Source: Bacillota bacterium (GTDB lineage Bacteria > Bacillota > Limnochordia > Limnochordales > ZCTH02-B6). From it: a DNA stretch of 64,000 nt. The position numbers and the translations under genes were made by a program. Every line of letters starts with the position of its first letter. The first letter of the stretch is position 1. The DNA lies in assembly GCA_017656145.1 (NCBI GenBank), contig JACDOI010000005.1, positions 12,941-76,940 of the forward strand, given 5' to 3'. The notes below the pieces were generated by a model that saw only the letters and a list, made by a program, of their open reading frames with translations, had not been told where the DNA came from and searched no databases. Positions 5,410 through 58,700 of this stretch are shown one piece after another.

Positions 5410-5909
5410 TTGGCCAGCCCCTCTAGCTGAAGCAGAAATCGCTTGATGTGCAAACCTCCCGTATACCCCCCGAGGCTGCCGTCGGACGCGATCACCCGGT
5501 GACAAGGAACGACGATGGCTGCCGGATTGCGCCCCGCGGCTAGGCCCACCGCCCGAGCCGCACCCGGCCGCCCGATGGCCCGCGCAACCCATCCGTAGCT
5601 GCGGGTTTCGCCGAAGGGAATCGTCTGCAGGCAGGCCCAAACGGCCCTTTGAAAAGGCGTCCCCTCAAGGTCCAGCGGGAAGTCGAACTGCCTGCGCCTG
5701 CCCTCGAAGTACTCGGCCAACTGGCTGACCGCGTCCCTGATCGGTACCGGCCCGTTGATGTCCCCGGGTTCGGCGGCGCGGACGGGCCCCTTTTGGATGG
5801 GGACCTGTCCCTCGCCCCCCAAACGGATCGCTTGCACCCCCCGCTCCGTGCCTCGGATCACGAGGGGACCTACCGGGCTTGCCACTGTCACGGACATCGG
5901 AACCGTCAC
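5406..5909 (-). CDS. ogt: methylated-DNA--protein-cysteine methyltransferase
   Basis: 167 aa with IPFGETRSYG and the active-site motif IVVPCHRVI. The start overlaps the trpA stop (ATGA-type overlap). Confidence 0.93.
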   Translation of the reverse strand: MTVPMSVTVASPVGPLVIRGTERGVQAIRLGGEGQVPIQKGPVRAAEPGDINGPVPIRDAVSQLAEYFEGRRRQFDFPLDLEGTPFQRAVWACLQTIPFGETRSYGWVARAIGRPGAARAVGLAAGRNPAAIVVPCHRVIASDGSLGGYTGGLHIKRFLLQLEGLAK

Positions 5910-6730
5910 GTCAACATCCCCGCGGCTTGCGCGGAGCCGCTTCGCAGCGTGGCCACGAACTCCCTGGCTGCCTGGAGCTTATCGGCCGCGGAGGCGGCCT
6001 GCTCCATACGGCTGACGAGGGCACTGCCTACGATAACGCCGTCGGCCCACCGGCCCACCTCCCGGGCGTGGTCGGGTGTCGACACCCCGAACCCTACCGC
6101 CAGCGGCACTCGCCCGCCGCTTGCATCCCGGACCCGGGAAAGAAACTCAGGAAGGTCCGGCGGCAGTGTGGCACGGGCCCCGGTCACTCCTGTCAAGGAT
6201 ACGCAGTAGATGAATCCCGACGCCACCTGTCCGACCAGTGCGAGCCGCTCCGGGGTGCTCGTCGGAGCGACCAGCGGAATCAAGTCGAGCCCCGCACCCC
6301 GGGCGTGCTGCCGCAGCGAGCCTGCCTCCTCCAGAGGCAGGTCGGGGACAACAAGCCCGTCCACTCCGGCCGCGGCCGCCTCCTGCGCGAACCGCTCCTC
6401 GCCGCGCCGGTAGATACAATTATAGTACACCAGCAGCACGATGGGAACTTTAAGCCCCTCTTGCCGCGCTCCGGATACGGCCTCCAGCACACCCGATACG
6501 GTCGTGCCCGACTGAAGGGCCCGCTGGGATGCCCGCTGGATCGTCGGCCCGTCGGCCAGAGGGTCTGAGTACGGCACGCCGAGTTCCAAGATGTCGGCGC
6601 CAGCCGCGGCCAGCTGCGGAATGAGGCGAGCCGTGAACGACAAGTCCGGGTCCCCCGCGGTCACAAACGGGATGACGGCGGGGCGCTTTTCCCGGGCGGC
6701 TGCGGCGAAGCTATTCGCGATGCGGCTCAC
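5906..6730 (-). CDS. trpA: tryptophan synthase alpha chain
   Basis: 274 aa with [10 protein letters not shown] and [19 protein letters not shown]. The start overlaps the trpB stop. Confidence 0.96.
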
Positions 6731-7941
6731 GATGCGCCAACTCCTTGCACGATGTCGGCCACCTGCTGCACGTCCTTGTCGCCGCGGCCGGACAAGTTGA
6801 TGAGCACGATATCGCCGGGCGAAAGCTGCCCTGCCAGCTTCACGCCGTGCGCGATCGCGTGCGCGCTCTCAAGAGCAGGCAAAATGCCTTCCTTGCGGGC
6901 CAACAGGTGAAACCCGTCCAGCGCCTCCCGGTCGGTCACCGCCACGTATTCGGCCCGGCCGCTGTCCTTAAGAAAACTGTGCTCGGGCCCGACGCCGGGA
7001 TAGTCAAGGCCTGCTGACACGCTGTGGGCCGGAAGAATTTGCCCGTCCTCATCGTGCAGGACGTACGTTTTCGCCCCGTGCAGCACGCCCTTGGTTCCCA
7101 TGGACAGCGTAGCTGCGTGGCGACCGGAGGACAGCCCCTCGCCCGCCGCTTCGACGCCCACCAGACGCACGTCCGGATCGTTCAAAAATCCGTGAAACAT
7201 GCCGATAGCGTTGCTGCCCCCGCCCACGCACGCAACGACGGCCGAGGGCAGGCGGCCGGCTTGCTCCAGCAATTGTGCCCGGGCCTCCCGGCCGATGATG
7301 GCCTGAAAGTCCCGCACCATGGTGGGATACGGGTGGGGACCGACCACCGAGCCGATAATGTAATGGGTCGTTCGCACATTGGTCACCCAGTCCCGGATCG
7401 CTTCGTTGGTGGCGTCCTTGAGGGTCGCGGTGCCGGAGGTGACCGGCACGACCCGGGCTCCCAAAAGTTCCATGCGGAACACGTTCAGGCGTTGACGCCG
7501 CATGTCCTCCGCGCCCATGTACACCACGCACTCCATACCGAACATGGCGCAGACGGTGGCGGTGGCCACCCCGTGTTGCCCCGCACCGGTTTCGGCGATG
7601 ATGCGCCGCTTGCCCATCCGCCGGGCGAGGAGGATCTGGCCGAGGCAGTTGTTGATCTTGTGGGCGCCGGTGTGGGTCAGGTCTTCCCGCTTCAAGTAGA
7701 TGGCGGCGCCGCCGGCCGCCTCGCTCAGCCGGCGGGCATGATAGAGCGGCGTCGGGCGCCCAGCGTAATGGGTCAAGTACTGCTCCAGCTCCGCTTGGAA
7801 ACGGGGGTCCGAACGGGCCTCGGCATAGGCCGCCTCAAGCTCGTCCAGGGCCGGGATCAGCGTCTCAGGCACGTACCGCCCGCCGTACTCGCCGAACCGG
7901 CCGGCGTTAAACTTCTCCGCCGGTGGGCTCATCGTCGACAT
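6727..7941 (-). CDS. trpB: tryptophan synthase beta chain
   Basis: 404 aa with [15 protein letters not shown] and [11 protein letters not shown] (PLP lysine). Confidence 0.97.
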
Positions 7942-8581
7942 CCCATCTCCTCACCTTCCAGACGAACTGCCGCATCCGCTCGGGGGATTTCTTCCCCGGC
8001 GCCGACTCCACCCCGCTGCTGACGTCAACCCCGTACGGACGGACGGTGCGAATCGCGAGGTCGACGTTACCCGCATTCAATCCGCCGGCCAAAATCAAGG
8101 GCAAGGGCGGCTCCCGCCGGCCCAGGATGTCGGACGCGGTTTGGGCGAGCGACCAGTCAAACGCGGTGCCCGTGCCGCCGGCCCGATTGGGATCGTACGC
8201 GTCCAGTAGCACCGCATCGGCCTCGATCTCCGCCAGACCATCGATGCTCGCGAAGTTCCGGACGCGTACCGCCTTGATAACCCGATACCCCAGTGCCCTC
8301 AGCCGCCGGGCTACCCTATTGCCCTCCTTGCCGTGAAGCTGGATGGCGTCGAGCCCTGCCCGTTCGGCTACCCGGGCCATGGTGTCATACGCTTCGTCGA
8401 CAAACACGCCCACCCGGATGAGAAACGGCGGCAAGGCGGCCGTGATCCGGGCTGCCTCATCCGGTTCGACGCGCCGGGGGCTTGGGGCGAAAACGATGCC
8501 GATCGCATCAGCGCCCGCCTCGGCCGCGGCTTGGGCATCCTGGGGTGTTGTCAATCCGCAAATCTTGACGCGGATCGTCAT
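7907..8581 (-). CDS. trpF: phosphoribosylanthranilate isomerase
   Basis: 224 aa starting [19 protein letters not shown]. Overlaps the trpB start by 35 nt and the trpC stop by 4 nt. Confidence 0.92.
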
Positions 8582-9390
8582 GGGGCCACCGCCTGGGACG
8601 CCCGCCCAGGGCGCGGCACGCCGTTTAAGCTCGCCACCGCTGTCTCCGGACTTAGGCTTCTAACCAGCGTCTCCCCGACCAAGACCGCATCAACCCCGCT
8701 GGCCGCGAGGCGCTCGATGTCGGATCGCCCGGCGATGCCCGACTCGCTGACGACGGTGATGCCCGCGGGAACCCGCGGTGCGAGTTGCTGACTCACCGCC
8801 AGGCTCGTTTCGAACGTCCGCAAGTCCCGGTTGTTGATTCCGATAAAGTCCACCCCCGCGTCCAGCGCCGTCTCCAGCTCCCAAGCGGTGTGAACTTCGA
8901 CCAAGCCGTCCATCCCCAATTCCCGGACGAGGGCCAGCAGATCGACAAGTACGGGCCGCTCCAGCGCTGCGGCGATGAGCAAAACGCCGTCGGCTCCCCA
9001 CGCCCGCGCCTCATACACCTGGAGCGGATCGATGACGAAGTCCTTCCGCAGCACGGGCAGGGAAACGGCTTGCCGCACCGCCGCCAGGTGTTCCAGGGAT
9101 CCACCGAAAAACGGCCCGTCGGTCAAGACAGACACCGCGGCGGCCCCGCCCCGCTCGTATGCCCGGGCGAGCTCCACCGGGTCGAATTCGGCTCGCAGCA
9201 CCCCTTTGGACGGCGATCGGCGCTTGACCTCGGCCATGATGCGGACCGGGCCGGCAGCGCCCAATGCCCGCGCAAGCCCCCGGGGAGGGTCTTGGGCGAC
9301 GGCCGCGTCCTTGAGGGCCGAAAGAGGACTCCGCCGGCGGAGTTCATCTACCTCGGCCCGCTTGACCTCCAAAATGCGGTCGAGGATCAT
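8578..9390 (-). CDS. trpC: indole-3-glycerol phosphate synthase
   Basis: 270 aa with IMAEVKRRSPSKG, VLTDGPFFGGS and LRKDFVIDPLQV. Confidence 0.95.
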   Translation of the reverse strand: MILDRILEVKRAEVDELRRRSPLSALKDAAVAQDPPRGLARALGAAGPVRIMAEVKRRSPSKGVLRAEFDPVELARAYERGGAAAVSVLTDGPFFGGSLEHLAAVRQAVSLPVLRKDFVIDPLQVYEARAWGADGVLLIAAALERPVLVDLLALVRELGMDGLVEVHTAWELETALDAGVDFIGINNRDLRTFETSLAVSQQLAPRVPAGITVVSESGIAGRSDIERLAASGVDAVLVGETLVRSLSPETAVASLNGVPRPGRASQAVAP

Positions 9391-10427
9391 GCTGCCTGGC
9401 CCCTTGTGAAGCGGCGCCAGTCTTCCAGTTTCCGGTAGGCGGCACCGGAATCGATGGACTCTTGGGCCATGGCGATGCCGTCCAAGAGCGATGAGGCAAG
9501 ACCGGCGACCTTGAGCGCAGCCCCGGCGTTCAGCACCACCGCGTTCCGAGCCGGTCCCCGGTCCTCGCCTCGCAAAATGGCGACGATGCGCCGCGCGTTC
9601 TCCTCGGCCGTGCCGCCCGAAAGCTCCTCGGGCCGGCTGCGGGCGAGCCCCACTTCCTCAGGAGCCAAGACGAACTCAGACACGCGGTCGCCGGTTACCT
9701 CAGCCAACGTGGTCGTCCCGCAGACCGACAGCTCATCCATTCCCGGCGCACCGTGGACGACGTACGCGTGCGTAGCGCCGAGGGCCCGCAATACTCCAGC
9801 CAGGACCGGCACGAGTTTCGCGTCATAGGCGCCGAGAACGTACGCCTGGGCGCCGGCGGGGTTGGTTAGCGGTCCGAGGACGTTGAATACGGTGCGCACG
9901 CCCAGTTCCCGCCGGGGTCCGGCCGCGTGTTTCATGGCCTGATGGTACAACGGGGCAAACATGAAACCGATGCCGGTTTCCTCGATGCAGTCGCGCACCT
10001 GCTCGGGGCTCAGATCGAGCCGGATTCCTAGCGCCTCCAGGACGTCGGCGCTGCCGCACCGGCTGGATACGGCCCGGTTTCCGTGCTTGGCCACGATCGC
10101 TCCCGCTCCAGCGGCGACCAGGGCCGCAGCGGTGGAAATGTTGAACGTGTTGCTGCCGTCGCCTCCCGTTCCGACAATATCCACCAAAGGCGCCCGGCGA
10201 GGGCGGATCTGCACCGCACAGCGGCGCATGCTTTTGGCGCAGCCGGTGATCTCGGCCACCGTTTCGCCTTTCATGCGCAAGGCGATAAGAAATCCCGCCA
10301 CTTGGGCCGGGGTGGCCTGGCCGCTCATGACCGCGTCCATGGCCGCCGACGCTTGTTCCTCGGTCAGATCTTGGCCCTGGACCAAAAGGCTGATGGCTTC
10401 GGCAATCGACATAGGCGTCATCGACAA
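9387..10427 (-). CDS. trpD: anthranilate phosphoribosyltransferase
   Basis: 346 aa with DIVGTGGDGSNTFNISTAAA and AKHGNRAVSS. Confidence 0.95.
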   Translation of the reverse strand: MSMTPMSIAEAISLLVQGQDLTEEQASAAMDAVMSGQATPAQVAGFLIALRMKGETVAEITGCAKSMRRCAVQIRPRRAPLVDIVGTGGDGSNTFNISTAAALVAAGAGAIVAKHGNRAVSSRCGSADVLEALGIRLDLSPEQVRDCIEETGIGFMFAPLYHQAMKHAAGPRRELGVRTVFNVLGPLTNPAGAQAYVLGAYDAKLVPVLAGVLRALGATHAYVVHGAPGMDELSVCGTTTLAEVTGDRVSEFVLAPEEVGLARSRPEELSGGTAEENARRIVAILRGEDRGPARNAVVLNAGAALKVAGLASSLLDGIAMAQESIDSGAAYRKLEDWRRFTRGQAA

Positions 10428-10440
10428 GGCCGTCCTCCCT

Positions 10441-11025
10441 TCACGCGGCCTGCACCGCGCCGGTCATCGCCAGGAAATTGCGCAACATCTGCTTGCCGCA
10501 GGATGTCAGGATCGATTCGGGGTGGAACTGGACGCCTTCTACCGGCAGAGAGCGGTGGCGCAAACCCATGACGTCTCCATTCGCCGTCTCGGCGGTCACC
10601 TCAAGGCAATCCGGCAGCGATTCCCGTTCCACCACCAGAGAGTGGTACCGGGTCGCTGAGATGGGCGACGGCACGCCGGCGAATAGGCCGCGGCCGTCAT
10701 GCCAGATATCCGATGTCTTGCCGTGCATCAACTCTTTGGCCCGCACGACCCGCCCGCCGAAGACCTCGGCAACGCACTGGTGCCCAAGGCAGACGCCAAG
10801 CACCGGAACCCGTCCGGCGAACCGGCGGATGACGTCGGACGAAATGCCCGCTTCCCGGGGGGTGCACGGCCCCGGTGAGATGACGATGCCTGCCGGGTTC
10901 AGCCGTTCGAGGTCCTCGGGTTGGACCTGGTCGTTGCGGTAGACCGCGAGCTTTGCGCCAAGTTCGCCCAAGTATTGGACGAGGTTGTAGGTGAAAGAAT
11001 CGTAGTTGTCGATAACCGCGATCAT
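10441..11025 (-). CDS. trpG: anthranilate synthase component II (glutamine amidotransferase)
   Basis: [27 protein letters not shown] and [11 protein letters not shown] 11025..11023 overlaps the trpE TGA (ATGA). The 142-codon extension in the track is out-of-frame trpE sequence. Confidence 0.94.
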
Positions 11026-12506
11026 CCCTTCGCCTCCTCCGCCAGGGCGATGGTCTTCAGAAGCGCCTTGGCTTTGTTGAGCGTCTCGTCGAACTCGGCT
11101 TGCGGGTTTGAATCGGCCACAATGCCGGCGCCGGCCTGGACGTGGGCCAAGCCGCCCTGTACCAGGACCGTCCGGATGGTGATGCACGAGTCCATGTTTC
11201 CCGAGAAACCGAAGTAACCAACCGCGCCGGCGTACGGCCCCCGGCGGCTCGGTTCCAGCTCGTCGATGATCTCCATGGCCCGGACCTTGGGCGCGCCGGT
11301 TACGGTACCGGCCGGAAACGTGGCGCGCAACAGATCGAACCCGGTCTTGCCCTCGGCCAATTCGCCGGTGACGTTGGAGACGATGTGCATGACGTGGGAA
11401 TACCGCTCGATGGTCATCAGTTCGTCCACCTGTACCGATCCGTAGCGGCACACCCGCCCCAGGTCGTTGCGGCCGAGGTCCACCAGCATGATGTGTTCGG
11501 CCCTTTCCTTGGCGTCCGCCAAAAGCTCCTTGGCCAACCGCTCGTCTTCTTCTGGCGTGGCTCCCCGGGGCCGGGTGCCGGCGATGGGCCTTAGCTGCGC
11601 CTTCCCACCGTCAAGCCGCACCATCACCTCGGGCGATGAGCCGATGAGCTGGTGGTCGCCGAAGTCCAGATAAAACATGTAGGGCGACGGATTGACTGAT
11701 CGCAGCACCCGGTACACGTCGAACGGATGGGCGCCAAGCGGCGCTGTCAGACGTTGTGAGAGAACGACCTGGAAGATGTCGCCCGCCGCGATGTACTCCT
11801 TGGCTTGCTGCACGGACCGGCAAAAGACATCTTTTTCCACGTTGGACTGGTATCGCGGCATGTGGAACCCGCGGGGGTCAATCCCCATGAGGGGCCGCAG
11901 CCCCGGCTCCCGCTCCAGCCGGCGGACAACGTCCTCGACTCGCCGGACCGCCCGCTTGTACGCGCCTTCCGGGTCCCCGTCGACCGGCTGGTTGACGACC
12001 ACCTGGATCCGGCGGCTCACGTGATCGAAGACGAGGACTGTGTCGGTGATGAGAAACGCCATGTCCGGCGTGTTCAGCTCGTCCCGGGGCCCCCCGGGCA
12101 GGCGCTCGATGAATCGGACCGCGTCGTAGCCTACATAGCCCACCGCACCGCCGAAGAAACGGGGAAGGCCGGGTAAACCGGGAACCCGATACCCGGACAA
12201 CAGTTCCTCCAGCCTCTTCAGCGGATCGGCGGCGGTTTCCCGAACCGTTCCGTTAGGACCGGTAATGATCACCTCGCGGCCCCGGGACCGAAAGGTCGCC
12301 AGAGCCGTGTTGCCCAGAAACGAGTAGCGGCCCAGCGTTTCCCCACCTTCCACGCTTTCGAGCAGAAACGTGTGGGGTCCCCATCCGAGCTTGGCCAAAG
12401 CGGACACAGGGGTATCGGTGTCGGCAATGACCTCCCGCAGGACGGGGATCACGTTGGCGGTCCGGGCCAGGGATGCAAACTCCGCCGGGCCGGGCGTGCA
12501 CTGCAT
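11022..12506 (-). CDS. trpE: anthranilate synthase component I
   Basis: Contains [36 protein letters not shown] and [13 protein letters not shown] at 12506 with AGGAGG about 8 nt upstream. Confidence 0.95.
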
Positions 12507-12511
12507 CGGAG

Positions 12512-12540
12512 AGCCTCCTGTCGCGGTTGAGCCGGAGGCT
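12512..12540 (-). promoter_or_regulatory. possible Shine-Dalgarno-sequestering hairpin of trpE
   Basis: Minus strand AGCCTCC (12540..12534) is perfectly complementary to GGAGGCT (12518..12512), which contains the trpE RBS. The loop is 15 nt. Confidence 0.4.
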
Positions 12541-12545
12541 GGCCG

Positions 12546-12575
12546 AAAAAAAGGCCACGCGGTCGCGTGGCCTTT
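12546..12575 (-). terminator. intrinsic terminator (attenuator) in the trp leader
   Basis: Minus strand AAA-GGCCACGCG-ac-CGCGTGGCC-TTTTTTT. It lies between the promoter and trpE, 30 nt after the triplet array. Confidence 0.75.
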
Positions 12576-12604
12576 CTGGGATCCCACTTAGAAACAGAGG
12601 ATAC

Positions 12605-12666
12605 CTCGAGGGATCGCTCGGCTCTGCTCTTCCGCGCTCGACTCGTCTCAAACTCAGCTCAATCTA
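12605..12666 (-). promoter_or_regulatory. (G/U)AG triplet array, candidate TRAP (MtrB) binding site
   Basis: Minus strand reads TAG-att-GAG-ct-GAG-ttt-GAG-ac-GAG-tc-GAG-cgcggaa-GAG-ca-GAG-cc-GAG-cgatccctc-GAG. That is 10 triplets, mostly with 2-3 nt spacers. Confidence 0.7.
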
Positions 12667-12678
12667 GAATTCCAGTCA

Positions 12679-12708
12679 ATTGTAGGCGTTGCGGGGCGAA
12701 CATGTCAA
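12679..12708 (-). promoter_or_regulatory. sigma-A-type trp operon promoter
   Basis: Minus strand consensus TTGACA (12708..12703), an 18-nt spacer, then TACAAT (12684..12679). Confidence 0.75.
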
Positions 12709-12722
12709 GACCGTCCGGGGGT

Positions 12723-13958
12723 TCAAAACACAAATTTCGCCCCGGACAGGCGCCGTCCCACCTCGCGGATGATTCGCCGCTCGTCATCCTCATCTTGCGC
12801 CTCGAAGGTGACCGACAGGCGGACGAAATGGCCCGCCTCGTCCCACGGCACGGTGGCGATGAGCTTTTCTGTCAACAGCCATTGGCTGAAGTCTTCCGCG
12901 GTGGCGAATTCGACGCTCCCGGCCGCCCGGGGCGCCCGTACGTACAAGTAGAAGGATGCCTTTGGCGGCCGGGCGTCGAAGCCCGCTTCCCGCAACACTT
13001 CGGCCAGCATCCGGTGCCGGCGGGCGTACTTTTCAGCGGCCCGCCGGGTGATCTCCGGATGGCGCAAGGCGCGGATGCAAGCCCACTGGATGGCCCGGAA
13101 CTGGCCGGAGTCGGTGTTGTCCTTGACTTGCGAGAACGCCTTGACCGCCAGCTCGTTTCCGCATACCCACGCCATGCGCCATCCGGTCATGTTAAATGCT
13201 TTCGACATGGAATGGATCTCGACACCGACCTCCAAGGCCCCCGGAACCGACAAAAAGCTCAGCGGCCGCTCGCCGTCGAATGTGAGGGCGGCGTACGCGG
13301 CGTCGTGGACCACCATGATCCGGTGGCGCCGGGCAAACTCGACCACATGCTCGAAAAACTCCCGGCTGGCGACAGCCCCAGTCGGGTTGTTGGGGTAGTT
13401 CAAATACAAAAGCTTCGCCCGGCGCCGCTGCTCTTCGGTGAGGCTGTCAAGGTCGGGCAAGAACCCGTTTTCGGGCGTTAACGCGAGCGGGTACACCTCG
13501 CCGCCCAGGTATTGGGTGTAGGTGGCCAGGACCGGATACCCCGGCACGGTAGTGACGGCCGCATCGCCGGGATCGATGAACGCCAGGGGCATCAGCGCCA
13601 GGGCGGACTTGGACCCGATGCTCGGGCAAACGTGGAGGTCGGGGTCTAGCCCCGTTACGCCGTAGACGTCGGCCATGTATTGAACGGCCGCGTCCCGGAA
13701 TTCGGGGATACCGTTGTCCGCGTAAAACCGGTTTTCCGGCCGGCCTGCTTGCCTTGCCAGTTCCTCCACGACCGACGGATCGGCCGGGGAGTCAGGCTCC
13801 CCGATGCCAAGGTCGATAAGTTCCAGTTCAGGGTGGGCTCGTCGGGCTTCTTCCCGGAGGCGCTTCAATTTGGCAAACTTGTACTCCCGCGCGTCCCGGC
13901 CGAATTGCGTCCCACCAAGGCGCTGGGCCAGCAACTCGCGAACGACGGACTCGATCAT
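12723..13958 (-). CDS. dapL: class I/II PLP aminotransferase, probable LL-diaminopimelate aminotransferase
   Basis: 411 aa with YKFAKL, DLGIGEPD, NYPNNPTG and SMSKAFNMTGWR (PLP lysine). It lies immediately downstream of dapF. Confidence 0.7.
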   Translation of the reverse strand: MIESVVRELLAQRLGGTQFGRDAREYKFAKLKRLREEARRAHPELELIDLGIGEPDSPADPSVVEELARQAGRPENRFYADNGIPEFRDAAVQYMADVYGVTGLDPDLHVCPSIGSKSALALMPLAFIDPGDAAVTTVPGYPVLATYTQYLGGEVYPLALTPENGFLPDLDSLTEEQRRRAKLLYLNYPNNPTGAVASREFFEHVVEFARRHRIMVVHDAAYAALTFDGERPLSFLSVPGALEVGVEIHSMSKAFNMTGWRMAWVCGNELAVKAFSQVKDNTDSGQFRAIQWACIRALRHPEITRRAAEKYARRHRMLAEVLREAGFDARPPKASFYLYVRAPRAAGSVEFATAEDFSQWLLTEKLIATVPWDEAGHFVRLSVTFEAQDEDDERRIIREVGRRLSGAKFVF

Positions 13959-28041: not shown

Positions 28042-29829
28042 TCACCGGCTGAGGCCGAGCAGGATGGCCAACACCGCGGCCCCCGCTGCCAGGGTGCCGG
28101 TGCCCCGTAGCGACCCGATCTCGTTCTCCGCTCTGGACCGGTAGCTGGCGAATTCGGACTTCAGTTCTTCCAGCTCCCGCTCCAGGCGCTGCTCCCGGGC
28201 GATGCTCAAGTTGAGCTGGGTCTCCATTTCCCGCCGCAACCGGTCGGCCAAGTTGGCGATTTGCTCTTCGCTTGTCCCAAGCAGCCCTTGGATGTCCCGG
28301 ATGGCCGCCTGAATCTCCGACAGCTCCTGGCGAATCGCACCCCGCTCGCTCCGGGACTCGGCCAAGGCGCTGTCGAAATCTTCTCTCAAAAGGTTGATGG
28401 CCGCCTCGTTGGCCAGGACCCGACCCTCCAGCGCGTCCTGTCGCCGGCGCAACGCCTGCACTTCCTGCCGCAGAGATTGCACATCCTGCAGAACTTGGGC
28501 GTCGCCTTCCACCAGCGCCGCGGACCGCCGTTCCGACTCCTCCCGGAGCGCGGCCAGCTCAGCTTCCAAGCTCGCCAGCAAATCGTGCAAGGCGCTGATC
28601 TGGGAGTCCAACCGCTGGCCCTCTTGGGCCGCCTGCTCTTCGACGGCTTCCACCTGGGCGCGGACCTCGTTGAGGCGGGCTTCCTGGTCCGACAGCCGCT
28701 CCTGGTGAGCGGCCAAAAACCGCCGCAGCTCCTCATCGGCGGTCTGCGCGGCCAGGCCCCGGGCTTGGACGGTCTCCTCAAGCTGCTCAAGGGCGGCCGC
28801 CAGATCCGCCGCGTCAGCCCGGAGCGTCGCCAGCTCCCCGCTCAAGTCGGAGACTTGCGCGTCCAACCGCTCATTGACCGCGGATTCCAGTTGGCCAAGG
28901 CGCAAGGCGATGGCCGCCGCCTGTTCGTTCATCAAGTTGGCCAGCCGCTGGACGTCGTCGTCCACCCGAACGGTCAACGCCGCGAGCTGTTCTTTCACGG
29001 CGTCCAGATCCTCCCGGAGCCCGTTTACCCGCTCATCCAATGCGGTCAAGTCCGCCGCCAGGCCCGACACGTCCGTCTCCAACGCTTCGAGAGCCGTGCG
29101 ATGTTCCCCGAGCCGCTGACCGAACTCCTCCTCGAGGGTTATCCCGTGCTGCTCCAAAGCCTGCTCCAGCGCGGCCTGCAGCGCGTCCAACCGCTGGGTC
29201 AAGTCTTCGCTGGTCTGCACAAGCCGCGCGTGCAACTCCGCGAGGCTTTCGTCCTGGCCGTCCATGCGCTCCTCATGCTCGTCCAGCAGAGCGTCCCGGG
29301 TTGCCAACTCCTGAGCAAATTGGGCGTCCATGGCCTCAAGCACCGCCGTGAGCTCCGCCCGGGCCGCCGCCTCCGCGTCGCGAAGGCTGTTCAGTTCGGA
29401 TTCGAGCAGCTCGAGATCCCGCAAAACCCGGTTCAGCTGCTCGTCGACGACGGCGACAGCCCGCTGGGTTTGGGCGTACGACGATTGCAGCTCGTCCCGC
29501 TCGGCGTGCCACGCCACCAGTTCCGCCCGGAACTCCTGTTCCAGCTGCCGGATAAGCTCCGCGTCGGCACCTTCCCGAATCTGTATCCGGCCGGCTTCAA
29601 TGTCCTCCAAAAGCCGCCCTACAACGGCTGCGACGGTAAACCGGTCCACCGGCTCTTCGCCCCGGAACGTACCGTCGTCGGCGATGTCCAAATACCCCCG
29701 GTCTACCAGCTCCCGAACCGCCTCGTACGCCCAGTGGTCCGGAGGCACGTCGGCCAGCCCGGCTGCGGCCGGAATGCCTGTCCAGGCCAAAAGCATCATG
29801 AGGGTCCATCCCAGGGCCCATCGCTTCAT
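28042..29829 (-). CDS. exported SLH-domain protein with a very long coiled coil and a C-terminal hydrophobic tail anchor
   Basis: ATG at 29829 with AAGGAGAGGTGA RBS. Signal peptide MKRWALGWTLMMLLAWTGIPAAAG. One SLH domain (DVPPDHWAYEAVRELVDRGYL..DGTFRGEEPVDRFTVA). About 480 aa of Glu/Leu/Ala/Arg heptad-like sequence. Ends GTLAAGAAVLAILLGLSR. Confidence 0.8.
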   Translation of the reverse strand: MKRWALGWTLMMLLAWTGIPAAAGLADVPPDHWAYEAVRELVDRGYLDIADDGTFRGEEPVDRFTVAAVVGRLLEDIEAGRIQIREGADAELIRQLEQEFRAELVAWHAERDELQSSYAQTQRAVAVVDEQLNRVLRDLELLESELNSLRDAEAAARAELTAVLEAMDAQFAQELATRDALLDEHEERMDGQDESLAELHARLVQTSEDLTQRLDALQAALEQALEQHGITLEEEFGQRLGEHRTALEALETDVSGLAADLTALDERVNGLREDLDAVKEQLAALTVRVDDDVQRLANLMNEQAAAIALRLGQLESAVNERLDAQVSDLSGELATLRADAADLAAALEQLEETVQARGLAAQTADEELRRFLAAHQERLSDQEARLNEVRAQVEAVEEQAAQEGQRLDSQISALHDLLASLEAELAALREESERRSAALVEGDAQVLQDVQSLRQEVQALRRRQDALEGRVLANEAAINLLREDFDSALAESRSERGAIRQELSEIQAAIRDIQGLLGTSEEQIANLADRLRREMETQLNLSIAREQRLERELEELKSEFASYRSRAENEIGSLRGTGTLAAGAAVLAILLGLSR

Positions 29830-29887
29830 GATCGCTCGTTCACCTCTCCTTAATGAAAGCATCGAACCATTGCCGGTTAACGCACCG

Positions 29888-32017
29888 TCACGGCTGCTCT
29901 TCCCCGCCCCGGACAAATACGACCGCCTCGTCGACAACCACGTTCACCGCATGGCCTTCTCCATCGGCCACGAACGCTTGTTGGGCGTCCGGGCGCAAGA
30001 AAGGGTGGTCGGCCACCGGGACAAGGCGCAACGCCGTACGGCCCTCGCCCACCGCCCGAAACCGGATCGTCGCCAGCGAATCGTTCCCCCACGGAAGCGG
30101 GTCTTTCGGCGACCGGCTGCCCGCGATGCGCACGACGCCCGTGCGGTTGTCCACCGCAGCGGGAATCCACCCAAGCCGCTCCCGTTCGCCGGTGATCGGA
30201 TTCACGTCGACGAACAAGCGTCCCCAGCCGACGCCCCGGGCCCCCCCGATCACCTGAAGCACGGCGGGGTCGAAGCGCAGCTCGAACGCGGCGCCGAAAA
30301 ACGGCCGCACGTTTTGGGCCCGCACCTCCACCGCGAACAGATCGCCCACGGCCACATCGACCTCCGAAGCGCCGGAGCGGGCGTCCACGATCTGCAGCGC
30401 CGCGTCGAGCCGGGGCACGTTGACGAAGTGGATGGGAAAGCGCGAGTCGATGCGAGCGTTATCGGATGTCAGCTCGACGGACACAGGCAAGTTGCCGACG
30501 ACCCCCGTGGGCACCAGGTGCCAGCGAGCCGTCACCGTTTGGCCGGGCTCCACGGAGCCGAGCCGCCACACCGCTCGATCGCCCCGTGCCAGGGAAAGCC
30601 CGATCGGCATTTGGATTTCCGCTTCCACGCCCCGCGCTTCCAGCTCCCCGGTGTTGGTAATTTGGGCTTCGACCGCAAACGGCACAGGCGACCATCGGCC
30701 ATCGACGACTTGGAGGTCCGTCGGGCCCGTTATGGCCGCGCTCAAAGACGCCGGCGCGACGACCGTGACCGACCGGTCGACCCGGTTCGGGTCGGTGTTT
30801 TCTGCTGTCACGAAGACCCTGTAGACGAACTCGCCGAACGTTTCCGGCGGGGCAGCTACCCGCCAGCTGACTTGCCGGGAAGCCCGCGGGGCCAAATCCC
30901 CCAGGCTGACCTGCGGGGATCCTTGGACCAGTTGCAGGGGACCGAGATTCTCGAGTCGCACCACCGCATCCCGCGCGATCCAGTCGCCGGTGTTCTCGAC
31001 GTACGCCCGGACCTCAAACACGACAGGCTCGTCGTAATGTCCTTCCACCGAGGCCGGAGACGTAACGCCCAGCGACAGCTGTCCCGGAGCGATGGTGATA
31101 CCGCCCAGGCCGTAATAGATCACGTACCGCCGGGACTGGCCCGGATCAAGAGGCGCCGGATCCCAGTAGAGGGCGACAGCGCTGTCCAGTTCGAACCCTT
31201 CCCCGACCCGGGTGAAATCCCGTCCGGGAGAGAAATCGAAGTCCCAGATGCCGTCGGCGAGGCTGCCCCAGTTTGAAAAGTAAACCTCATCCGGAACAGT
31301 GGTGTCGAAGGCTCGAAGGGTCCCTTGGGAAACGACCCTCGGGTTGGCCAGCGAGTCAAAGGCTTGAAAGTAGTCGGGGATGGCCTCGTGCCGAAACCCG
31401 TGGTCGGCGGTGAGAGCCTGCCCGCTCACTTGAAACGGAGCGCCGTCGTTTGCTCCCAGCATCGTATCGAGCATGATCCGCAAGCCCACTGTTCGGGTCT
31501 GGGAACCCTCGTTGGCGACGACGTACTCGATCCGGGCCGTATCCGGATTTCCGGTGGTGATCCCCTTTGCGATGGAGATCACTTGGGTCACCAGGATGTC
31601 CCCCATCCGAAACGCGGTCCGTATCTCGCGCCCCTCATGAAACGTCGGCGGTTCCACCATCTGTCCGTACTGTCCTGTGCGGCCCGCCCGTTTTCCCGTC
31701 TGGCCGCCGAATACGTAATCGCGGCCGTCGATCCGCACGGTGGTGTACGACGTCCACGGACCGGGAGGGTTTTCGGTGCCGTAGATGAGCGGCATGCGCT
31801 CATCCCCTTCCCGTTCGGGATCTCCCCCGGTCGTGTTGACGGAGAACCGCCCGGTGTCCTCGTTCCTTGCGTTGACGACGATGGCGATGAATTCGTTTTC
31901 CAGGACAAAGCTGTCTCCGCTCCGGGTCTGCACTTCTTGGGCCAGGGCCGGTGACCCCGCCAAGGCCAGGGCTAAGATGAGCATCCCGATGAGCCGTGGG
32001 CTCAGCACGAACGGCAC
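29888..32017 (-). CDS. secreted multidomain protein: unassigned N-terminal domain, two CARDB-like Ig domains, C-terminal cohesin-like domain
   Basis: Signal peptide LIGMLILALALAGSPALAQE. Two segments of the type VxNTG...xxVxL...L..G.S..V.W (CARDB-like). C-terminus LFAVEVRAQNVRPFFGAAFELRFDPAVLQV...LATIRFRAVGEG (cohesin-like). The start could instead be the GTG at 32008. Confidence 0.75.
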   Translation of the reverse strand: MPFVLSPRLIGMLILALALAGSPALAQEVQTRSGDSFVLENEFIAIVVNARNEDTGRFSVNTTGGDPEREGDERMPLIYGTENPPGPWTSYTTVRIDGRDYVFGGQTGKRAGRTGQYGQMVEPPTFHEGREIRTAFRMGDILVTQVISIAKGITTGNPDTARIEYVVANEGSQTRTVGLRIMLDTMLGANDGAPFQVSGQALTADHGFRHEAIPDYFQAFDSLANPRVVSQGTLRAFDTTVPDEVYFSNWGSLADGIWDFDFSPGRDFTRVGEGFELDSAVALYWDPAPLDPGQSRRYVIYYGLGGITIAPGQLSLGVTSPASVEGHYDEPVVFEVRAYVENTGDWIARDAVVRLENLGPLQLVQGSPQVSLGDLAPRASRQVSWRVAAPPETFGEFVYRVFVTAENTDPNRVDRSVTVVAPASLSAAITGPTDLQVVDGRWSPVPFAVEAQITNTGELEARGVEAEIQMPIGLSLARGDRAVWRLGSVEPGQTVTARWHLVPTGVVGNLPVSVELTSDNARIDSRFPIHFVNVPRLDAALQIVDARSGASEVDVAVGDLFAVEVRAQNVRPFFGAAFELRFDPAVLQVIGGARGVGWGRLFVDVNPITGERERLGWIPAAVDNRTGVVRIAGSRSPKDPLPWGNDSLATIRFRAVGEGRTALRLVPVADHPFLRPDAQQAFVADGEGHAVNVVVDEAVVFVRGGEEQP

Positions 32018-32025
32018 CTCCGCGT

Positions 32026-33396
32026 CTACGGCCGGTCGAGATAACGGCGGCCTTCGAAATCGAGGACTTGCACCCGACTGCTGACGCCACCCATCGTCAC
32101 CACTTCAAACCGCACTCGCCAGACCTCCACGAAGGACCGGCCTTCCGGGTCGGGGTTGAACGTCCACCGGCGCAACTGCTCCACCAACCTTGTGTCGATA
32201 TCTTGCAGGCTTGTGGAGCCGATAACCCTCACATCCGCCACCGTACCGGCTCCAGACACCTCCACCTCGACTACCAGATCGGCCAGCGGGTAGTCGATGG
32301 GAACGTTTTCTAAAGCCTTCGGCGTTCCCAGGCCGGGGTTGCGGGCCAGGGATACGGGCGGCGGCGGAGGCGCCCCCTCGCCCTCCAATGCTTCAGACGG
32401 GTCAAGGTCGCCGTCCTGCGGCTCAGCGGCGGGCTCCCCGTCTCCCGGCCGCTCCTCATCCGGCAGCGCCGGCTCGGGCCGGTCTTCCGGTTCCGCAACG
32501 GGCGGCGTCGCGCGATCCGCCAGCGATCCAGGTTCCGGATCAGGCTCAAGCGGTTCCGGTTCCGGCTCGGGCCCGGGAGAAGGCCCAGGCAGCGGCAGGG
32601 GCGGAGCCTCCAAAGGCGCGGACTGTGAGCCCGGCTCCGGCTCAGACGGGGATTGCGGTGTCGCTGGATCGGCAGGCTCGGGAACGGACTCCTCCGCGGG
32701 GCGGGCGGCCGGGATGTCGAAAACGCCCTGGTCGCTGGCGAGGATCTCCTCTCCGATCCCTGGCCCCTGCTCCGGATCGGGAGCAAGTTCAGCAGGGGCC
32801 GGAGGTTCACGGTCCGGCAAATCCGTCGCCTCCGACTGGCGCGGCAGCCCGGGCGGCTCGACCGGTTCAGGCTGGGGTTCGGACGCCGCTGGGCCGGTTG
32901 GCTCAGGCCGAGGCTCGGGCGCAGGCGGCTCCGGTACCGGTTCTGACGGCGCTTCGGGCTCCGGCTCGGGTTCCGGTTCCGGCTCGGGCCTAGGCTCCGG
33001 CGCCGCCTCCGGGGGCCGTTCAGGAGGCTCAGGCGCCCGCTCCGGCTCGGGCCGGCTCTGTTCCACCGGCGGTCGCTCAGGACTGGGCGGCTGAACGGCG
33101 GGCGCGTCCGCACGCGGGGGTTCCGGCTCGGGCGCAGGCTCCGGCATCTTGGCTTGCGGCCGAGGTCGCTCGGAAGCGATGGGAACCGGCCGCGACGGCT
33201 GCGGCGGCTGGGGCATCGGCACCGACGGGGCCGGCAGGCTGACCAGTTCGACTACGCCGCCCTGGTCGAGGCCGGGGCCGGTGACCACCGCCGACTGCCA
33301 CTGGGGCCACAACCAGATGAGCAAACCGTGGACGAGCACGGAAAGGATGAAAAACCAGTGGAATGAGGACTGTTCCTCCCGCTCGTCGGCGGTCAC
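32026..33396 (-). CDS. TonB/TolA-like energy transducer (N-terminal TM, about 300 aa Pro/Glu-rich linker, TonB_C-like domain)
   Basis: GTG at 33396 with AGGTGAGG RBS. TM helix FHWFFILSVLVHGLLIWLW. Long PEPEPE/APEP tracts. C-terminal IDYPLAD...VEVEVSGAGTVADVRVIGSTS...FNP resembles the TonB C-terminal fold. Confidence 0.7.
   Translation of the reverse strand: MTADEREEQSSFHWFFILSVLVHGLLIWLWPQWQSAVVTGPGLDQGGVVELVSLPAPSVPMPQPPQPSRPVPIASERPRPQAKMPEPAPEPEPPRADAPAVQPPSPERPPVEQSRPEPERAPEPPERPPEAAPEPRPEPEPEPEPEPEAPSEPVPEPPAPEPRPEPTGPAASEPQPEPVEPPGLPRQSEATDLPDREPPAPAELAPDPEQGPGIGEEILASDQGVFDIPAARPAEESVPEPADPATPQSPSEPEPGSQSAPLEAPPLPLPGPSPGPEPEPEPLEPDPEPGSLADRATPPVAEPEDRPEPALPDEERPGDGEPAAEPQDGDLDPSEALEGEGAPPPPPVSLARNPGLGTPKALENVPIDYPLADLVVEVEVSGAGTVADVRVIGSTSLQDIDTRLVEQLRRWTFNPDPEGRSFVEVWRVRFEVVTMGGVSSRVQVLDFEGRRYLDRP
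32316..33234 (-). repeat. low-complexity Pro/Glu/Ala-rich coding tract inside the TonB-like gene
   Basis: Runs such as PEPEPEPEPEPEAPSEPVPEPPAPEPRPEP. It produces mirror-image Gly/Ser-rich and Arg-rich ORFs in other frames. Confidence 0.6.
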
Positions 33397-41146: not shown

Positions 41147-41785
41147 TCACGGGAGCATGCGAGCCACTGCGTCCATGAGCACGGGCGTCACGTACGCTTC
41201 CACAAAGGCGGCCGCGACAAACGCCGCGGCGCTTGTCCCAAGCAACAGGCCGGTGCCCAGCAAATGGTGATACATGCTGGTCTCCCGGCGGCCCAACAGC
41301 ACCCGGACAGCGGCCAACGAGAAGCTGATGGCGCTGGCCCCCGCCACGATGAGGGCGGGAACCGCCAGCACGTTGTGGGGAACGATCGCAGCGACAGCCA
41401 GAATGAGTCCCCGGAACATGAGCCGGTCCACTAAAAACGCGGCCGTGAATCCCAGGACAAATCCCCGCAGGAAAACGACAGCCAGGACGAAAGGCGCGCC
41501 GATGATGGAAAGACCCAACAAACCGATGAGTCCCACGGTCTTGAGCAGCTGATCGGCAGCCGCCTGCCGCAGGACGTCCTCGGGCTCGGGGAACGCCCGT
41601 TCCTTTTCAACGTCCATGAGCCCTTCCAGCTCAAGGCCGAGGGCGGCCCGTTGGTCGGTGCCGACGCGGCCGACGGCCAGTCCGCCCCAGACGGTCCCCA
41701 TGGCAAAAACGATGACGACGGAAAGATAAATCGCGGTCCTGCGGCGGAAATAGCCTTTCAGGACGTCCGCGAACCCGCCGGCCAC
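41147..41785 (-). CDS. spoIIM: stage II sporulation protein M
   Basis: 212 aa polytopic membrane protein. N-terminus FADVLKGYFRRRTAIYLSVVIVF and AIVPHNVLAVPALIVAG are typical of SpoIIM. Confidence 0.88.
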   Translation of the reverse strand: MAGGFADVLKGYFRRRTAIYLSVVIVFAMGTVWGGLAVGRVGTDQRAALGLELEGLMDVEKERAFPEPEDVLRQAAADQLLKTVGLIGLLGLSIIGAPFVLAVVFLRGFVLGFTAAFLVDRLMFRGLILAVAAIVPHNVLAVPALIVAGASAISFSLAAVRVLLGRRETSMYHHLLGTGLLLGTSAAAFVAAAFVEAYVTPVLMDAVARMLP

Positions 41786-55790: not shown

Positions 55791-58700
55791 CTAAAAAAGC
55801 GTCAGCTGGTCCGTCTCTGGCAAGCCGTCCAGGGCCCCGTGCTGGCGCAAGGCATCGACGACGCTGCGGCTCACGCCCGCCCGCCGCCGCAAGTCTTCCA
55901 TAGACGTGAACGGGCCCTCTTTCCGGGCCGCGGCGATGCTGTCCGCCGCGCTGGCGCCGACTCCCGCCAGCGCCATGAGCGGCGGCAAAAGGCCTTGAGG
56001 CGTGATCCGGAACCGTCGCGGGTCGGATTCGTACAGATGCACCCGTCGAAACGAAATGCCGCGGGCCATGGCTTCCAACACGATCTCCAAAATCGTCACC
56101 AAGTTTTTCTCTCGGGCGGTCGCTTCCGGCCCTTTGCGTTCTACCGCTTCCATGGCCCGGCGCATGGCTTCCCGCCCTTCGATCACCAGCTGCGCGTCGT
56201 ACTCTTCGGCCCGCACCGACAGGTAGGACGCGTAAAACGCCTCGGGATAATGGACTTTAAAGTACGCGATGCGAAACGCCATCATCACGTAGGCCGCGGC
56301 GTGGGCTTTGGGGAACATGTAGCTGATCTTTTGGCATGACTCGATGTACCACTCGGGCAAGCCGTGGCGCCGCATCAGTTCTTCGTCCTCAGGCTTGAGC
56401 CCCTTGCCCTTGCGGACCTGCTCCATGATCCGGAACGCTGCTCCGGATTCTATCCCCCGCTGGATCAGGTACGTCATGATGTCGTCCCGGGTCGCAATGA
56501 CTTCCGGCAACGTCGCGATGCCCCGCCGGATCAAGTCCTGGGCGTTGTTGGTCCAGACGTTGGTCCCATGGGAGAGGCCACTGATTCGCACCAGTTCCGC
56601 GAATGTACGGGGCCTGGTTTCTTCCAGCATCTGCCGGACGAACCGGGTGCCGAACTCAGGCACGCCCAGGGTGCCCACGTTGGTCCCGGCCTCCCCCGGC
56701 CGCAGTCCCAGCGAGGTCACGTCGCGAAAGATGGCCATCGTATCCGGATCGTCCAGGGGAATTCTGCGGACGTCGACCCCCGTCATATCCTGGAGCATCC
56801 GGAGCACGGTCGGATCGTCGTGGCCGAGGATGTCCAGCTTCACCAGGTTGTCGTGCAGCGCATGGAAATCGAAATGGGTCGTCACAACGCCGGCGTCCCG
56901 ATCGTTGGCGGGGTATTGCACCGGAGTGAACTCGTGGATATCCCGGCCGCGGGGGACGACGATGAGCCCGCCCGGGTGCTGGCCCGTAGTCCGCCGCACG
57001 CCCGAGCATCCCCGGACCAGGCGGTTCACCTCCGCCGCGCGCGCTTCCCGCCCTTGGGCTTCGAGGAACTTCCGGACGTAGCCGTACGCGGTGCGCTCCG
57101 CGAGGGTAGCCGTGGTGCCGGCCCGGTAAACGTTTTCCTTGCCGAGAAGTTCCTCCGCGTACTTATGGGCTTCCGCCTGGTATTCCCCGGAAAAGTTGAG
57201 GTCGATATCGGGCACCTTGTCGCCGTGGAATCCCATGAACGTTTCGAACGGGATGTCGAACCCGTCTTTTTCCAGCGACTGGCCGCAGCGGGGACACTCG
57301 CGGGCCGGCAGATCGATCCCGCACCCGTAGCGGCCGTCGGTGAAAAACTGGGTCCACTGGCAAGATGGGCAGACGTAGTGCGGCGGCAGGGGATTGACCT
57401 CGGTGATGCCGCACATGGTCGCCACCAGCGACGAGCCCACCGAACCCCGGGAACCGACCAGGTATCCGTCCTCCAGCGACTTGCGAACGAGCTTGTGAGC
57501 GATGTAATACAGCGGCGCAAAGCCGTTGTCGATAATCGCCTTCAGCTCCCGCTCAAGCCGGGTCTCCACGATCTCCGGCAACGGATCCCCATACCGGGCC
57601 CGGGCCCGCTGGCGGGCCATGGCCGCGATGGTGTCGGCCGCTTCGGGCACATCCGGCGTATGGAGGCCGGGCGGCACCGGCTCCATGGACTCGCAACGGT
57701 CGGCGATCCGGTTGGGGTTGACGATGACGACTTCCCGGGCCTTCTCGTCTCCCAAATAGGCGAACTCCTCGAGCATTTCCCGGGTCGTGCGCAGATATAG
57801 GGGCGTCGGCCGTTCCGCAGTGCTGAAGCCGTGGCCGGCCATGAGAATGCGGCGGAAGATATCGTCTTCCGGATGGATGAAATGCGCGTCGGAGGTGGCC
57901 ACCACCGGAAGCCCCAATTCCTCGCCGAGCTTGACGATGCGCCGGTTGATCTCGAGCAGGTCGTCTTCGCCCTTCACTTTCCCCTCGCCGATCAGAAACC
58001 GGTTGTTGTCCCTGGGCTGAATCTCCAGGTAGTCGTAAAACCGCGCCCGCTCCAACAGCTTCTCCCACGGCTCGCCCGACAAAATCGCCTGGTACAGTTC
58101 CCCGGCCTCGCAGGCGGAGCCGACGATCAGCCCTTCCCTCCGCCGGGCCAGCTCGTCCCGGGGGATCCGGGGGTTGCGGTAAAAGTAGCGCAAGTGCGAA
58201 AGAGAAACCAGCTCGTACAGGTTTCTCAGTCCCCGCTTGTTCCGGGCCAGGATGATGATGTGGTATGATCGGCTTCGCGCCTCGGGGTCGTCGACCAAAT
58301 ACCCCTCGATGCCGTAAATCAGCTTAATTCCGGACGCCGCTGCGGCCTGGTGCGCCTCGGGAAAGGCGTGGATGACCCCGTGGTCGGTGACGGCCACGGC
58401 CCGGTGTCCCCACGCGGCCGCCTGGCGAATAGCCGCAGCCACATCCGCGGCGCCGTCCAGGCTGCTCATCTTGGTGTGCATGTGCAGTTCGACCCGCTTT
58501 TCGGGCCAGTCGTCGATCCTTGCGCGGGGTTCCGTCCGCATTATATCCTTGGCGCTCAAGACCAGCTCCCGGGCGAACCGGTCGAACTCCACCCGGCCCC
58601 GGATCCGGACCGCTGTGCCCGCCGGCAACGGGTCTGCCAGCACCGCCTCTCCGCGGGCGAACAACTTAACCGTGATGGAGTCGGTGCGGTCGGTGATGTC

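Follow-up and report, generated by a model that had tools for sequence, protein, structure and literature searches.

A likely TRAP-type attenuator in the leader of a trpEGDCFBA operon from a GC-rich lineage related to Limnochordia

The trp operon and its leader

The DNA under study is a 64-kb stretch (hereafter, the window) from a metagenome-assembled genome (MAG), with a G+C content of 66%. It carries a trp operon with the gene order trpE-G-D-C-F-B-A (5906..12506), followed by ogt and a gene of the methionine gamma-lyase family. Gene calls were taken from an identical 7.9-kb contig of the SRA run SRR13776092. A preliminary description of this DNA had remarked on the very GC-rich genome and on the presence of trpG within the operon, and both remarks hold. 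The TRAP-like leader occupies the 5′ untranslated region that runs from a sigma-A-type promoter to trpE, and all of its features lie on the minus strand at the coordinates given in Table 1. Elsewhere, the window carries lexA (267-875), SpoIIM (41147-41785) and, at 28042-33396 on the minus strand, three large adjacent ORFs of 631, 709 and 456 aa. The first gives weak S-layer-homology and coiled-coil-like matches, the second contains a cohesin-like domain and the third has no Pfam match; they probably encode cell-envelope proteins.

Table 1. Positions of the leader features, of the trp genes and of the triplet arrays adjoining mtrB on other contigs
Feature	Position	Strand	Basis
-35 hexamer TTGACA	12703..12708	-	Consensus match; relatives with TTGACA-17/18-TAnAAT at the equivalent site
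-10 hexamer TACAAT, 18-nt spacer to -35	12679..12684	-	11/12 consensus matches for the promoter
(G/U)AG triplet array (1 UAG, 9 GAG)	12605..12666	-	Chain statistics and homology with the arrays of relatives
7-nt 'long spacer' CG-CGG-AA	12630..12636	-	Overlies tc-GAG-tt of relatives in alignment A3
Candidate antiterminator, 5′ strand (last array triplets and GAUCCC)	12610..12627	-	Fold of the transcript before the 3′ arm; consensus structure
Candidate antiterminator, 3′ strand (GGGAUC and part of the terminator 5′ arm)	12565..12585	-	Region shared with the terminator, 12572-12565
Intrinsic terminator (attenuator), AAAGGCCACGC-GACC-GCGUGGCCUUU and rest of the U7 run	12546..12575	-	Folding
SD-sequestering hairpin, AGCCUCC (12540-12534) with GGAGGCU (12518-12512)	12512..12540	-	Fold, -12.5 kcal/mol
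trpE, anthranilate synthase component I, 494 aa, NCBI MBO8140976.1	11022..12506	-	Gene calls, Pfam domains
trpG	11025-10441	-	Pfam domains; gene calls on identical contig L001
trpD	10421-9387	-	Pfam domains; gene calls on identical contig L001
trpC	9390-8578	-	Pfam domains; gene calls on identical contig L001
trpF	8581-7907	-	Pfam domains; gene calls on identical contig L001
trpB	7941-6727	-	Pfam domains; gene calls on identical contig L001
trpA	6730-5906	-	Pfam domains; gene calls on identical contig L001
mtrB-adjacent array	L106:7097-7260
mtrB-adjacent array	L149:5187-5370
mtrB-adjacent array	L156:6461-6775
mtrB-adjacent array	L130:10214-10520
mtrB-adjacent array	L110:3816-4000

The preliminary description had proposed a consensus promoter, ten triplets (one TAG and nine GAG) mostly 2-3 nt apart, a strong intrinsic terminator with a 7-U tract, and pairing of AGCCUCC with the Shine-Dalgarno sequence (SD) of trpE. 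We found these four elements where it had placed them. The promoter, TTGACA-18-TACAAT, matches the consensus at 11 of 12 positions, and shuffles of the region gave an expectation of 0.1 such sites. Judging from this sequence the sigma-A-type promoter is strong, and we infer that transcription would start at around 12672.

The array begins with the TAG at 12666 and continues with GAG triplets at 12660, 12655, 12649, 12644, 12639, 12629, 12624, 12619 and 12607. The successive spacers measure 3, 2, 3, 2, 2, 7, 2, 2 and 9 nt, that is, 2-3 nt in seven out of nine cases. Nine triplets make up the core of the array (12666-12617), where they fill 9 of 10 consecutive positions of a 5-6-nt register, and the tenth (12607-12605) lies 9 nt beyond it. 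When only 2-3-nt spacers were accepted, the array gave a chain of 6 triplets, compared with 3 for the runner-up across both strands of the window; with two longer spacers permitted, these values were 10 and 4. Among 100 windows simulated with a first-order Markov model, the longest chains were 5 and 6, respectively. The triplet array is hence far above chance expectation. Natural TRAP sites are built of 9-11 NAG repeats (G~U>A>C), between which the spacers are not conserved (PMC1474065), and their triplets are spaced by 2-3 nt (PMC7430163). The window array agrees with this description in its ten triplets and in seven of its nine spacers.

Downstream of the array, a GC-rich hairpin spans 12575-12550 and leads into a U7 tract, the last position of which is 12546. 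This hairpin folds with -19.4 to -21.7 kcal/mol, according to the segment used for folding. A simple terminator scan of the region did not list this main attenuator, probably because the stem reaches into A/U pairs and too few T's are left in the tail. The sole call of the scan was a weak hairpin at 12738-12752 (minus strand), within the 3′ end of an aminotransferase gene. Between the terminator and trpE, the hairpin formed by AGCCUCC and GGAGGCU consists of 7 bp with perfect pairing and buries the SD of the trpE ATG at 12506.

Related leaders and the antiterminator

Using a TrpE protein search and a look-up of the corresponding contigs, we recovered eight distinct related trp leaders (L082, L084-L087, L089, L093 and L094; the leader of L083 is the same as that of L082), with TrpE identities of 61-75%. 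Assemblies with related leaders include GCA_047459605.1, GCA_041685055.1 and GCA_964424335.1. The nearest TrpE proteins were 73-76% identical to that of the window and included a cluster named Limnochordales at NCBI, and the 61-65% tier included proteins named Limnochordia. A TrpE scan of a genome collection gave, among the matches listed, identities of at most 58% from many phyla and no usable leaders. By tetranucleotide signature, the clade could not be told apart from GC-matched controls.

The related loci resemble the window in promoter, array, a GGUCCCG/CGGGAUC helix, terminator, a conserved UCCGGCUCAAC segment and gene neighbourhood. All eight leaders have a TTGACA-17/18-TAnAAT promoter and a hairpin with a U-run ahead of trpE, and they share with the window the gene order miaB-mutS-mutL-miaA-AAA-GTPase ... 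trp operon-ogt-mgl ... surE. Directly upstream of the trp promoter, the relatives also have a conserved ORF of 76-94 aa with no Pfam match (L082:9501-9785, L084:9591-9839, L085:9581-9841, L086:6495-6725 and L087:9393-9641), in place of which the window has dapF and the aminotransferase gene. Translations from L082, L084 and L085 show a hydrophobic N-terminus and the motifs GLGYG.GRRQG and C.LCG.

The arrays of the eight relatives contain from 8 to about 14 (G/U)AG triplets, mostly 2 nt apart. In L082, L084 and L085 there are eight triplets with strict 2-nt spacers, whose bases vary (tt, ct, ac, cc, tc, ca); one of the eight triplets of L085 is UAG. L086 has seven GAG plus an in-register AAG, L087 has nine GAG with about 50 nt ahead of the array, and L089 has ten GAG. 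The two relatives with 58-59% G+C (L093 and L094) have around fourteen G/UAG triplets in blocks split by longer spacers. Triplet conservation among the leaders of trpE orthologs had been suggested as a check on the TRAP assignment, and these homologous arrays provide it: the triplets are kept while the spacers vary.

In a MAFFT alignment of the six closest leaders, the window triplets are in register with the others. The 7-nt spacer of the window, CG-CGG-AA, is aligned exactly over tc-GAG-tt of its relatives, and we therefore read it as a decayed triplet (2 + 3 + 2 nt). The 5-nt register would thus be kept, with a single subunit of a ring protein skipped at this position. The 7- and 9-nt spacers had been described as departures from the Bacillus pattern; both are present, but the 7-nt one corresponds to a decayed in-register triplet and not to a true gap.

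We then folded each leader up to the terminator loop, i.e. as the transcript without the 3′ arm. In six of the eight relatives the 5′ arm of the terminator pairs with the array (per-nucleotide probabilities of 0.57-0.90), enclosing the conserved GGUCCCG...CGGGAUC helix; such pairing between array and arm is absent in L087. These composite antiterminator stems, in which GAGCU or GAGCC of the array is paired to GGCUC in the terminator arm, reach -28 to -34 kcal/mol, versus -12 to -19 for the terminators. RNAalifold recovered the antiterminator from the alignment, with 88% of cells paired compared to 25-50% when the partners were slid. Covariation amounts to two compensatory pairs among six similar sequences, which gives weak statistical support. 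When the array was forced to be single-stranded, the antiterminator partners were lost and the terminator probability rose wherever it was not already saturated, from 0.60 to 0.97 in L085 and from 0.51 to 0.96 in L089.

The window leader departs from this picture. Its closest relatives combine eight strictly spaced triplets with a terminator 5′ arm, GACCAGGCUC, capable of good pairing with GAGCC or GAGCU of the array, whereas the window carries the terminator arm sequence GGCCACGCG, unlike that of its relatives, and a much weaker antiterminator. This antiterminator is the weakest in the set, with only 5 of 11 nucleotides of the 5′ arm engaged and a probability of array pairing of 0.23. The energy difference in favour of the terminated fold is +16 kcal/mol, compared with +1 to +11 in the relatives. 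On thermodynamics alone, the window terminator would fire even when protein-free. In addition, the GCGCGG of the decayed-triplet segment is complementary to a window-specific CCGCG (12562-12558) in the loop and 3′ arm of the terminator, with a pairing probability near 0.78 when the transcript ends at 12558, which hints at co-adaptation. A convincing antiterminator had not been discerned by eye in the preliminary description; folding yields a weak one for the window and a clear one in most relatives. In these models, the antiterminator is the least secure part of a TRAP model for the window sequence.

Regarding the hairpin over the SD, its pairing probability in the window is at least 0.91 with the array either free or blocked, and folding therefore does not make it TRAP-dependent. 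It may act as a constant brake or be controlled kinetically. Of the translational control of trpE put forward earlier, the hairpin is real, but its dependence on the state of the array is not predicted. Across the relatives, SD accessibility changed in no consistent direction between free and blocked arrays, and in most of them a hairpin of the local fold hides the SD wholly or partly. The loop of the hairpin holds a segment, GGCUCAACCGCG, that is conserved in the alignment of leaders. More broadly, the stretch at 12519-12533 between terminator and SD, (U)CCGGCUCAAC(C/G)GCGCG, is nearly invariant in the window and four relatives, a conservation beyond the need of a simple hairpin loop.

MtrB in the lineage and beside trp leaders

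We searched for the TRAP protein, MtrB, using the G. stearothermophilus TRAP sequence, checked against PDB 1C9S, as a query. No mtrB was found in the 64-kb window or within ±10 kb of any related trp operon. Likewise, no MtrB was found among the NCBI accessions of the window MAG's block (MBO81409xx). The candidates MBE3574702, MBO2521069, MBO2484397, MFO7318569 and MFS8653178 all fall outside this block, and therefore the link to mtrB holds at the clade level only.

A first search gave, among the matches listed, MtrB proteins from Bacillaceae only. The family comprises 4,559 clusters at 90% identity, and an exhaustive search yielded 127 representatives at 50% identity. MtrB (PF02081) was detected in MAGs named Limnochordia at NCBI and in contigs of 59-68% G+C, with a common gene order aroA-dnaE-(malic enzyme)-mtrB. 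One representative (P0250) is annotated at NCBI as 'MtrB [Limnochordia bacterium]' and lies in the order aroA-dnaE-mtrB-DUF2007-pfkA-pyk. Another (P0265), from a 'Firmicutes bacterium' MAG with 66.3% G+C, lies in the order aroA-dnaE-malic enzyme-mtrB-small gene-accD-accA. A metagenome scan added two contigs of 68% G+C with aroA-(dnaE)-mtrB (L109 and L148), one of 61.5% with aroA-mtrB-DUF2007 (L114) and one of 59% with malic enzyme-mtrB ... DUF2007-accD (L102). The MtrB of L148 (P0511) occurs on 45 contigs, and its NCBI accessions are named 'Firmicutes bacterium'.

Residues Thr30, Glu36, Lys37, Asp39, Lys56 and Arg58 (B. subtilis numbering) are invariant in the MtrB proteins of the lineage (alignment A4). 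Glu36, Lys37, Lys56 and Arg58 are RNA-binding residues and Thr30 belongs to the tryptophan pocket (PMC1474065). With the RNA- and tryptophan-binding residues intact, the MtrB of this lineage is functional-looking at the sequence level. A tblastn search of the retrieved loci with an anti-TRAP query returned just DnaJ-like Cys-rich matches at unrelated loci.

Some candidate links to the window were discarded. A GC-rich MtrB subgroup chosen by amino-acid composition turned out to be named mostly as Dormibacterota, Baltobacterales or 'Chloroflexi' MAGs, not as the window lineage. The TrpE relatives P0017 and P0031 do not belong to GCA_014896355.1, the assembly that bears mtrB. As a separate observation, the window encodes at 55791-59264 (minus strand) a 1157-aa protein of the DNA polymerase III alpha type, with a PHP domain and, at the N-terminus, an OB fold. 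The polymerase III alpha beside mtrB in contig L092 is 27% identical to it, a value that is uninformative on relatedness since the two genes are probably different paralogs, the window's being e.g. PolC.

Low-GC metagenome contigs served as positive controls: in five of them (L106, L149, L156, L130 and L110), mtrB is directly followed by an array of 9-11 triplets. As in the window, trpE is the gene after the array in L106, L149 and L156, and L106 and L130 show a hairpin with a U-run downstream of it. The hairpin of L130, GACCAGGCUC...CCGGUC, resembles at its start that of the relatives of the window. These loci differ from the window in their G+C content (35-50%) and in that mtrB adjoins the leader, and TrpE of the mtrB-array loci is just 50-55% identical to that of the window. 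In L130 and L156, a second group of GAG triplets covers the SD and the start region, a feature absent from the window; the position of this group suggests direct translational blocking in these two loci.

Proposed mechanism and alternative explanations

Taking together the anatomy of the leader, the array statistics, its conservation, the lack of a match to any other leader class and the presence of MtrB in the lineage, TRAP-type attenuation is the best explanation, and we consider it likely that the leader of trpEGDCFBA is a protein-mediated transcription attenuator of this type. This agrees with the original proposal of TRAP-type attenuation rather than a T-box, which is further supported by the contigs that carry mtrB, array and trpE together.

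We infer that TRAP binding, the tryptophan response and the kinetic competition of the two folds would operate as follows. Transcription would begin at the sigma-A-type promoter, and the first ~65 nt of RNA would bear the nine in-register triplets and the tenth. With plentiful tryptophan, a tryptophan-loaded MtrB ring would bind one triplet per subunit, with the array wrapped round the ring. The bound array would be held single-stranded and be unavailable for pairing with the downstream hairpin's 5′ arm; once freed, this arm would let the GC-rich U7 terminator form, and RNA polymerase would stop ahead of trpE. With scarce tryptophan, the free array and GAUCCC would pair with GGGAUC and the terminator 5′ arm, and this antiterminator would allow read-through into trpE. 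The 7-bp hairpin over the SD would act as an additional brake on translation.

Since the window terminator is the most strongly favoured and its antiterminator the weakest of the set, one could argue that the attenuator has decayed in this genome, leaving a largely constitutive terminator or RNA-only element and a GAG array that is a relic. The decayed triplet, the replaced terminator arm and the predicted constitutive SD hairpin point in the same direction. Nonetheless, nine in-register triplets are left, inside the natural range of 9-11 (PMC1474065), and an operon under such a terminator would be almost silent, yet all seven trp genes are intact. The complementarity of CGCGG to the window-specific CCGCG looks like co-adaptation rather than decay. 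Moreover, the choice between termination and antitermination is settled kinetically and not at equilibrium, and the B. subtilis attenuator likewise needs more than RNA folding (PMC3064811). We thus regard decay of the attenuator as unlikely.

It could also be that the array is read by a different RNA-binding protein, or that mtrB has been lost, with the same logic in which an array held single-stranded lets the terminator form. The lack of mtrB in the window and within ±10 kb of the related trp operons, and of an MtrB accession linked to the MAG, is in line with this reading. Against it stand the 5-nt period of GAG/UAG, a specific signature of TRAP sites (PMC1474065), the MtrB proteins with intact RNA-binding residues in the same class and in GC-matched contigs, and the same leader layout in mtrB-encoding contigs; we judge this explanation improbable. 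There is a similarly small chance that the organism is devoid of mtrB and that the period-5 GAG array is read by an unknown RNA-binding protein or acts with an unusually strong terminator in a protein-independent way. If true, the leader would only mimic a TRAP site, having arisen or survived in the absence of TRAP.

T-box riboswitches and ribosome-mediated attenuators with a leader peptide are both common controls of trp operons in Gram-positives, and a terminator is present here. A covariance-model match to another leader class had been named beforehand as a result that would count against TRAP. At the Rfam gathering threshold no family, T-box (RF00230) included, was found in the window or in the eight related loci, and the window leader gave no T-box-like match even with E values up to 10. 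The window leader contains no ORF of at least 8 codons, and no ORF in the related leaders has more than one Trp codon, which leaves both mechanisms very unlikely. HutP also recognises NAG triplets and binds UAG repeats; its sites, which belong to hut operons, comprise two groups of three UAG spaced by 4 nt, and its binding prevents termination. With GAG triplets, 2-3-nt spacers and a position ahead of trp genes, the window leader can hardly be a HutP-type antiterminator site.

In order to contextualize the TRAP-type reading, we compared the window with the trpEDCFBA leader of B. subtilis. Both have a sigma-A promoter, a (G/U)AG array with mostly 2-3-nt spacers and an SD-sequestering hairpin ahead of trpE (PMC3064811, PMC7430163). 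In B. subtilis the TRAP site overlaps the antiterminator, which shares only a few residues with the terminator (PMC3064811), and in the window the array would likewise overlap the 5′ strand of the candidate antiterminator, with few residues shared with the terminator. As for the differences, the window has 10 triplets, nine of them GAG, versus 11 mixed GAG/UAG triplets, and its array is broken by the decayed triplet and the 9-nt gap. The B. subtilis leader has a 5′ stem-loop ahead of its array, whereas the window array lies about 6 nt from the predicted 5′ end. The window also differs in having trpG inside the operon, 66% G+C and an anti-SD hairpin that is predicted whether the array is free or blocked. 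Finally, its terminator is strong (about -20 kcal/mol, U7), in contrast to the weak B. subtilis attenuator that needs bound TRAP (PMC3064811). These differences are variations within the known design, and the mechanism itself is known.

The translational targets of B. subtilis TRAP (trpG and others) also contain NAG arrays for the same protein (PMC1474065). The window array, unlike theirs, is separated from the SD by about 100 nt, with a terminator in between. In the B. subtilis translational targets, ribosomes are directly blocked by arrays that lie over the SD or start codon.

To our knowledge, TRAP-type attenuation has been studied experimentally almost only in Bacillus and Geobacillus, and our literature search, which did not cover older comparative work on TRAP outside Bacillaceae, found nothing on TRAP in Limnochordia. 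The window leader, which leaves the known TRAP mechanism unchanged, would extend it to an uncultured GC-rich lineage related to Limnochordia. The nine leaders form a comparative set in which the triplets, the 5-nt register and the pairing of the array with the terminator 5′ arm are kept, while the spacers, the terminator sequence, the number of triplets and the tolerance of a skipped position drift. Having a strong terminator and a weak antiterminator, the reverse of B. subtilis, the window would also be a natural test of the role of TRAP beyond RNA refolding.

Two further observations concern the MtrB family at large. A large and tight subgroup of MtrB/TRAP homologs (P0273 and P0367-P0483), with 85-96% mutual identity and Arg in place of Lys37, is named at NCBI as Candidatus Dormibacteraeota/Dormibacterales, Baltobacterales and 'Chloroflexi' MAGs, and therefore TRAP may be common in soil phyla beyond Firmicutes. 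Besides, ten large proteins of 440-2268 aa (P0307, P0334, P0344-P0347, P0349, P0356, P0359 and P0362) contain 2-7 weak TRAP matches each (22-34% identity, E values from 1e-10 to 8e-4), which may represent a repeated TRAP-like beta-sandwich module.
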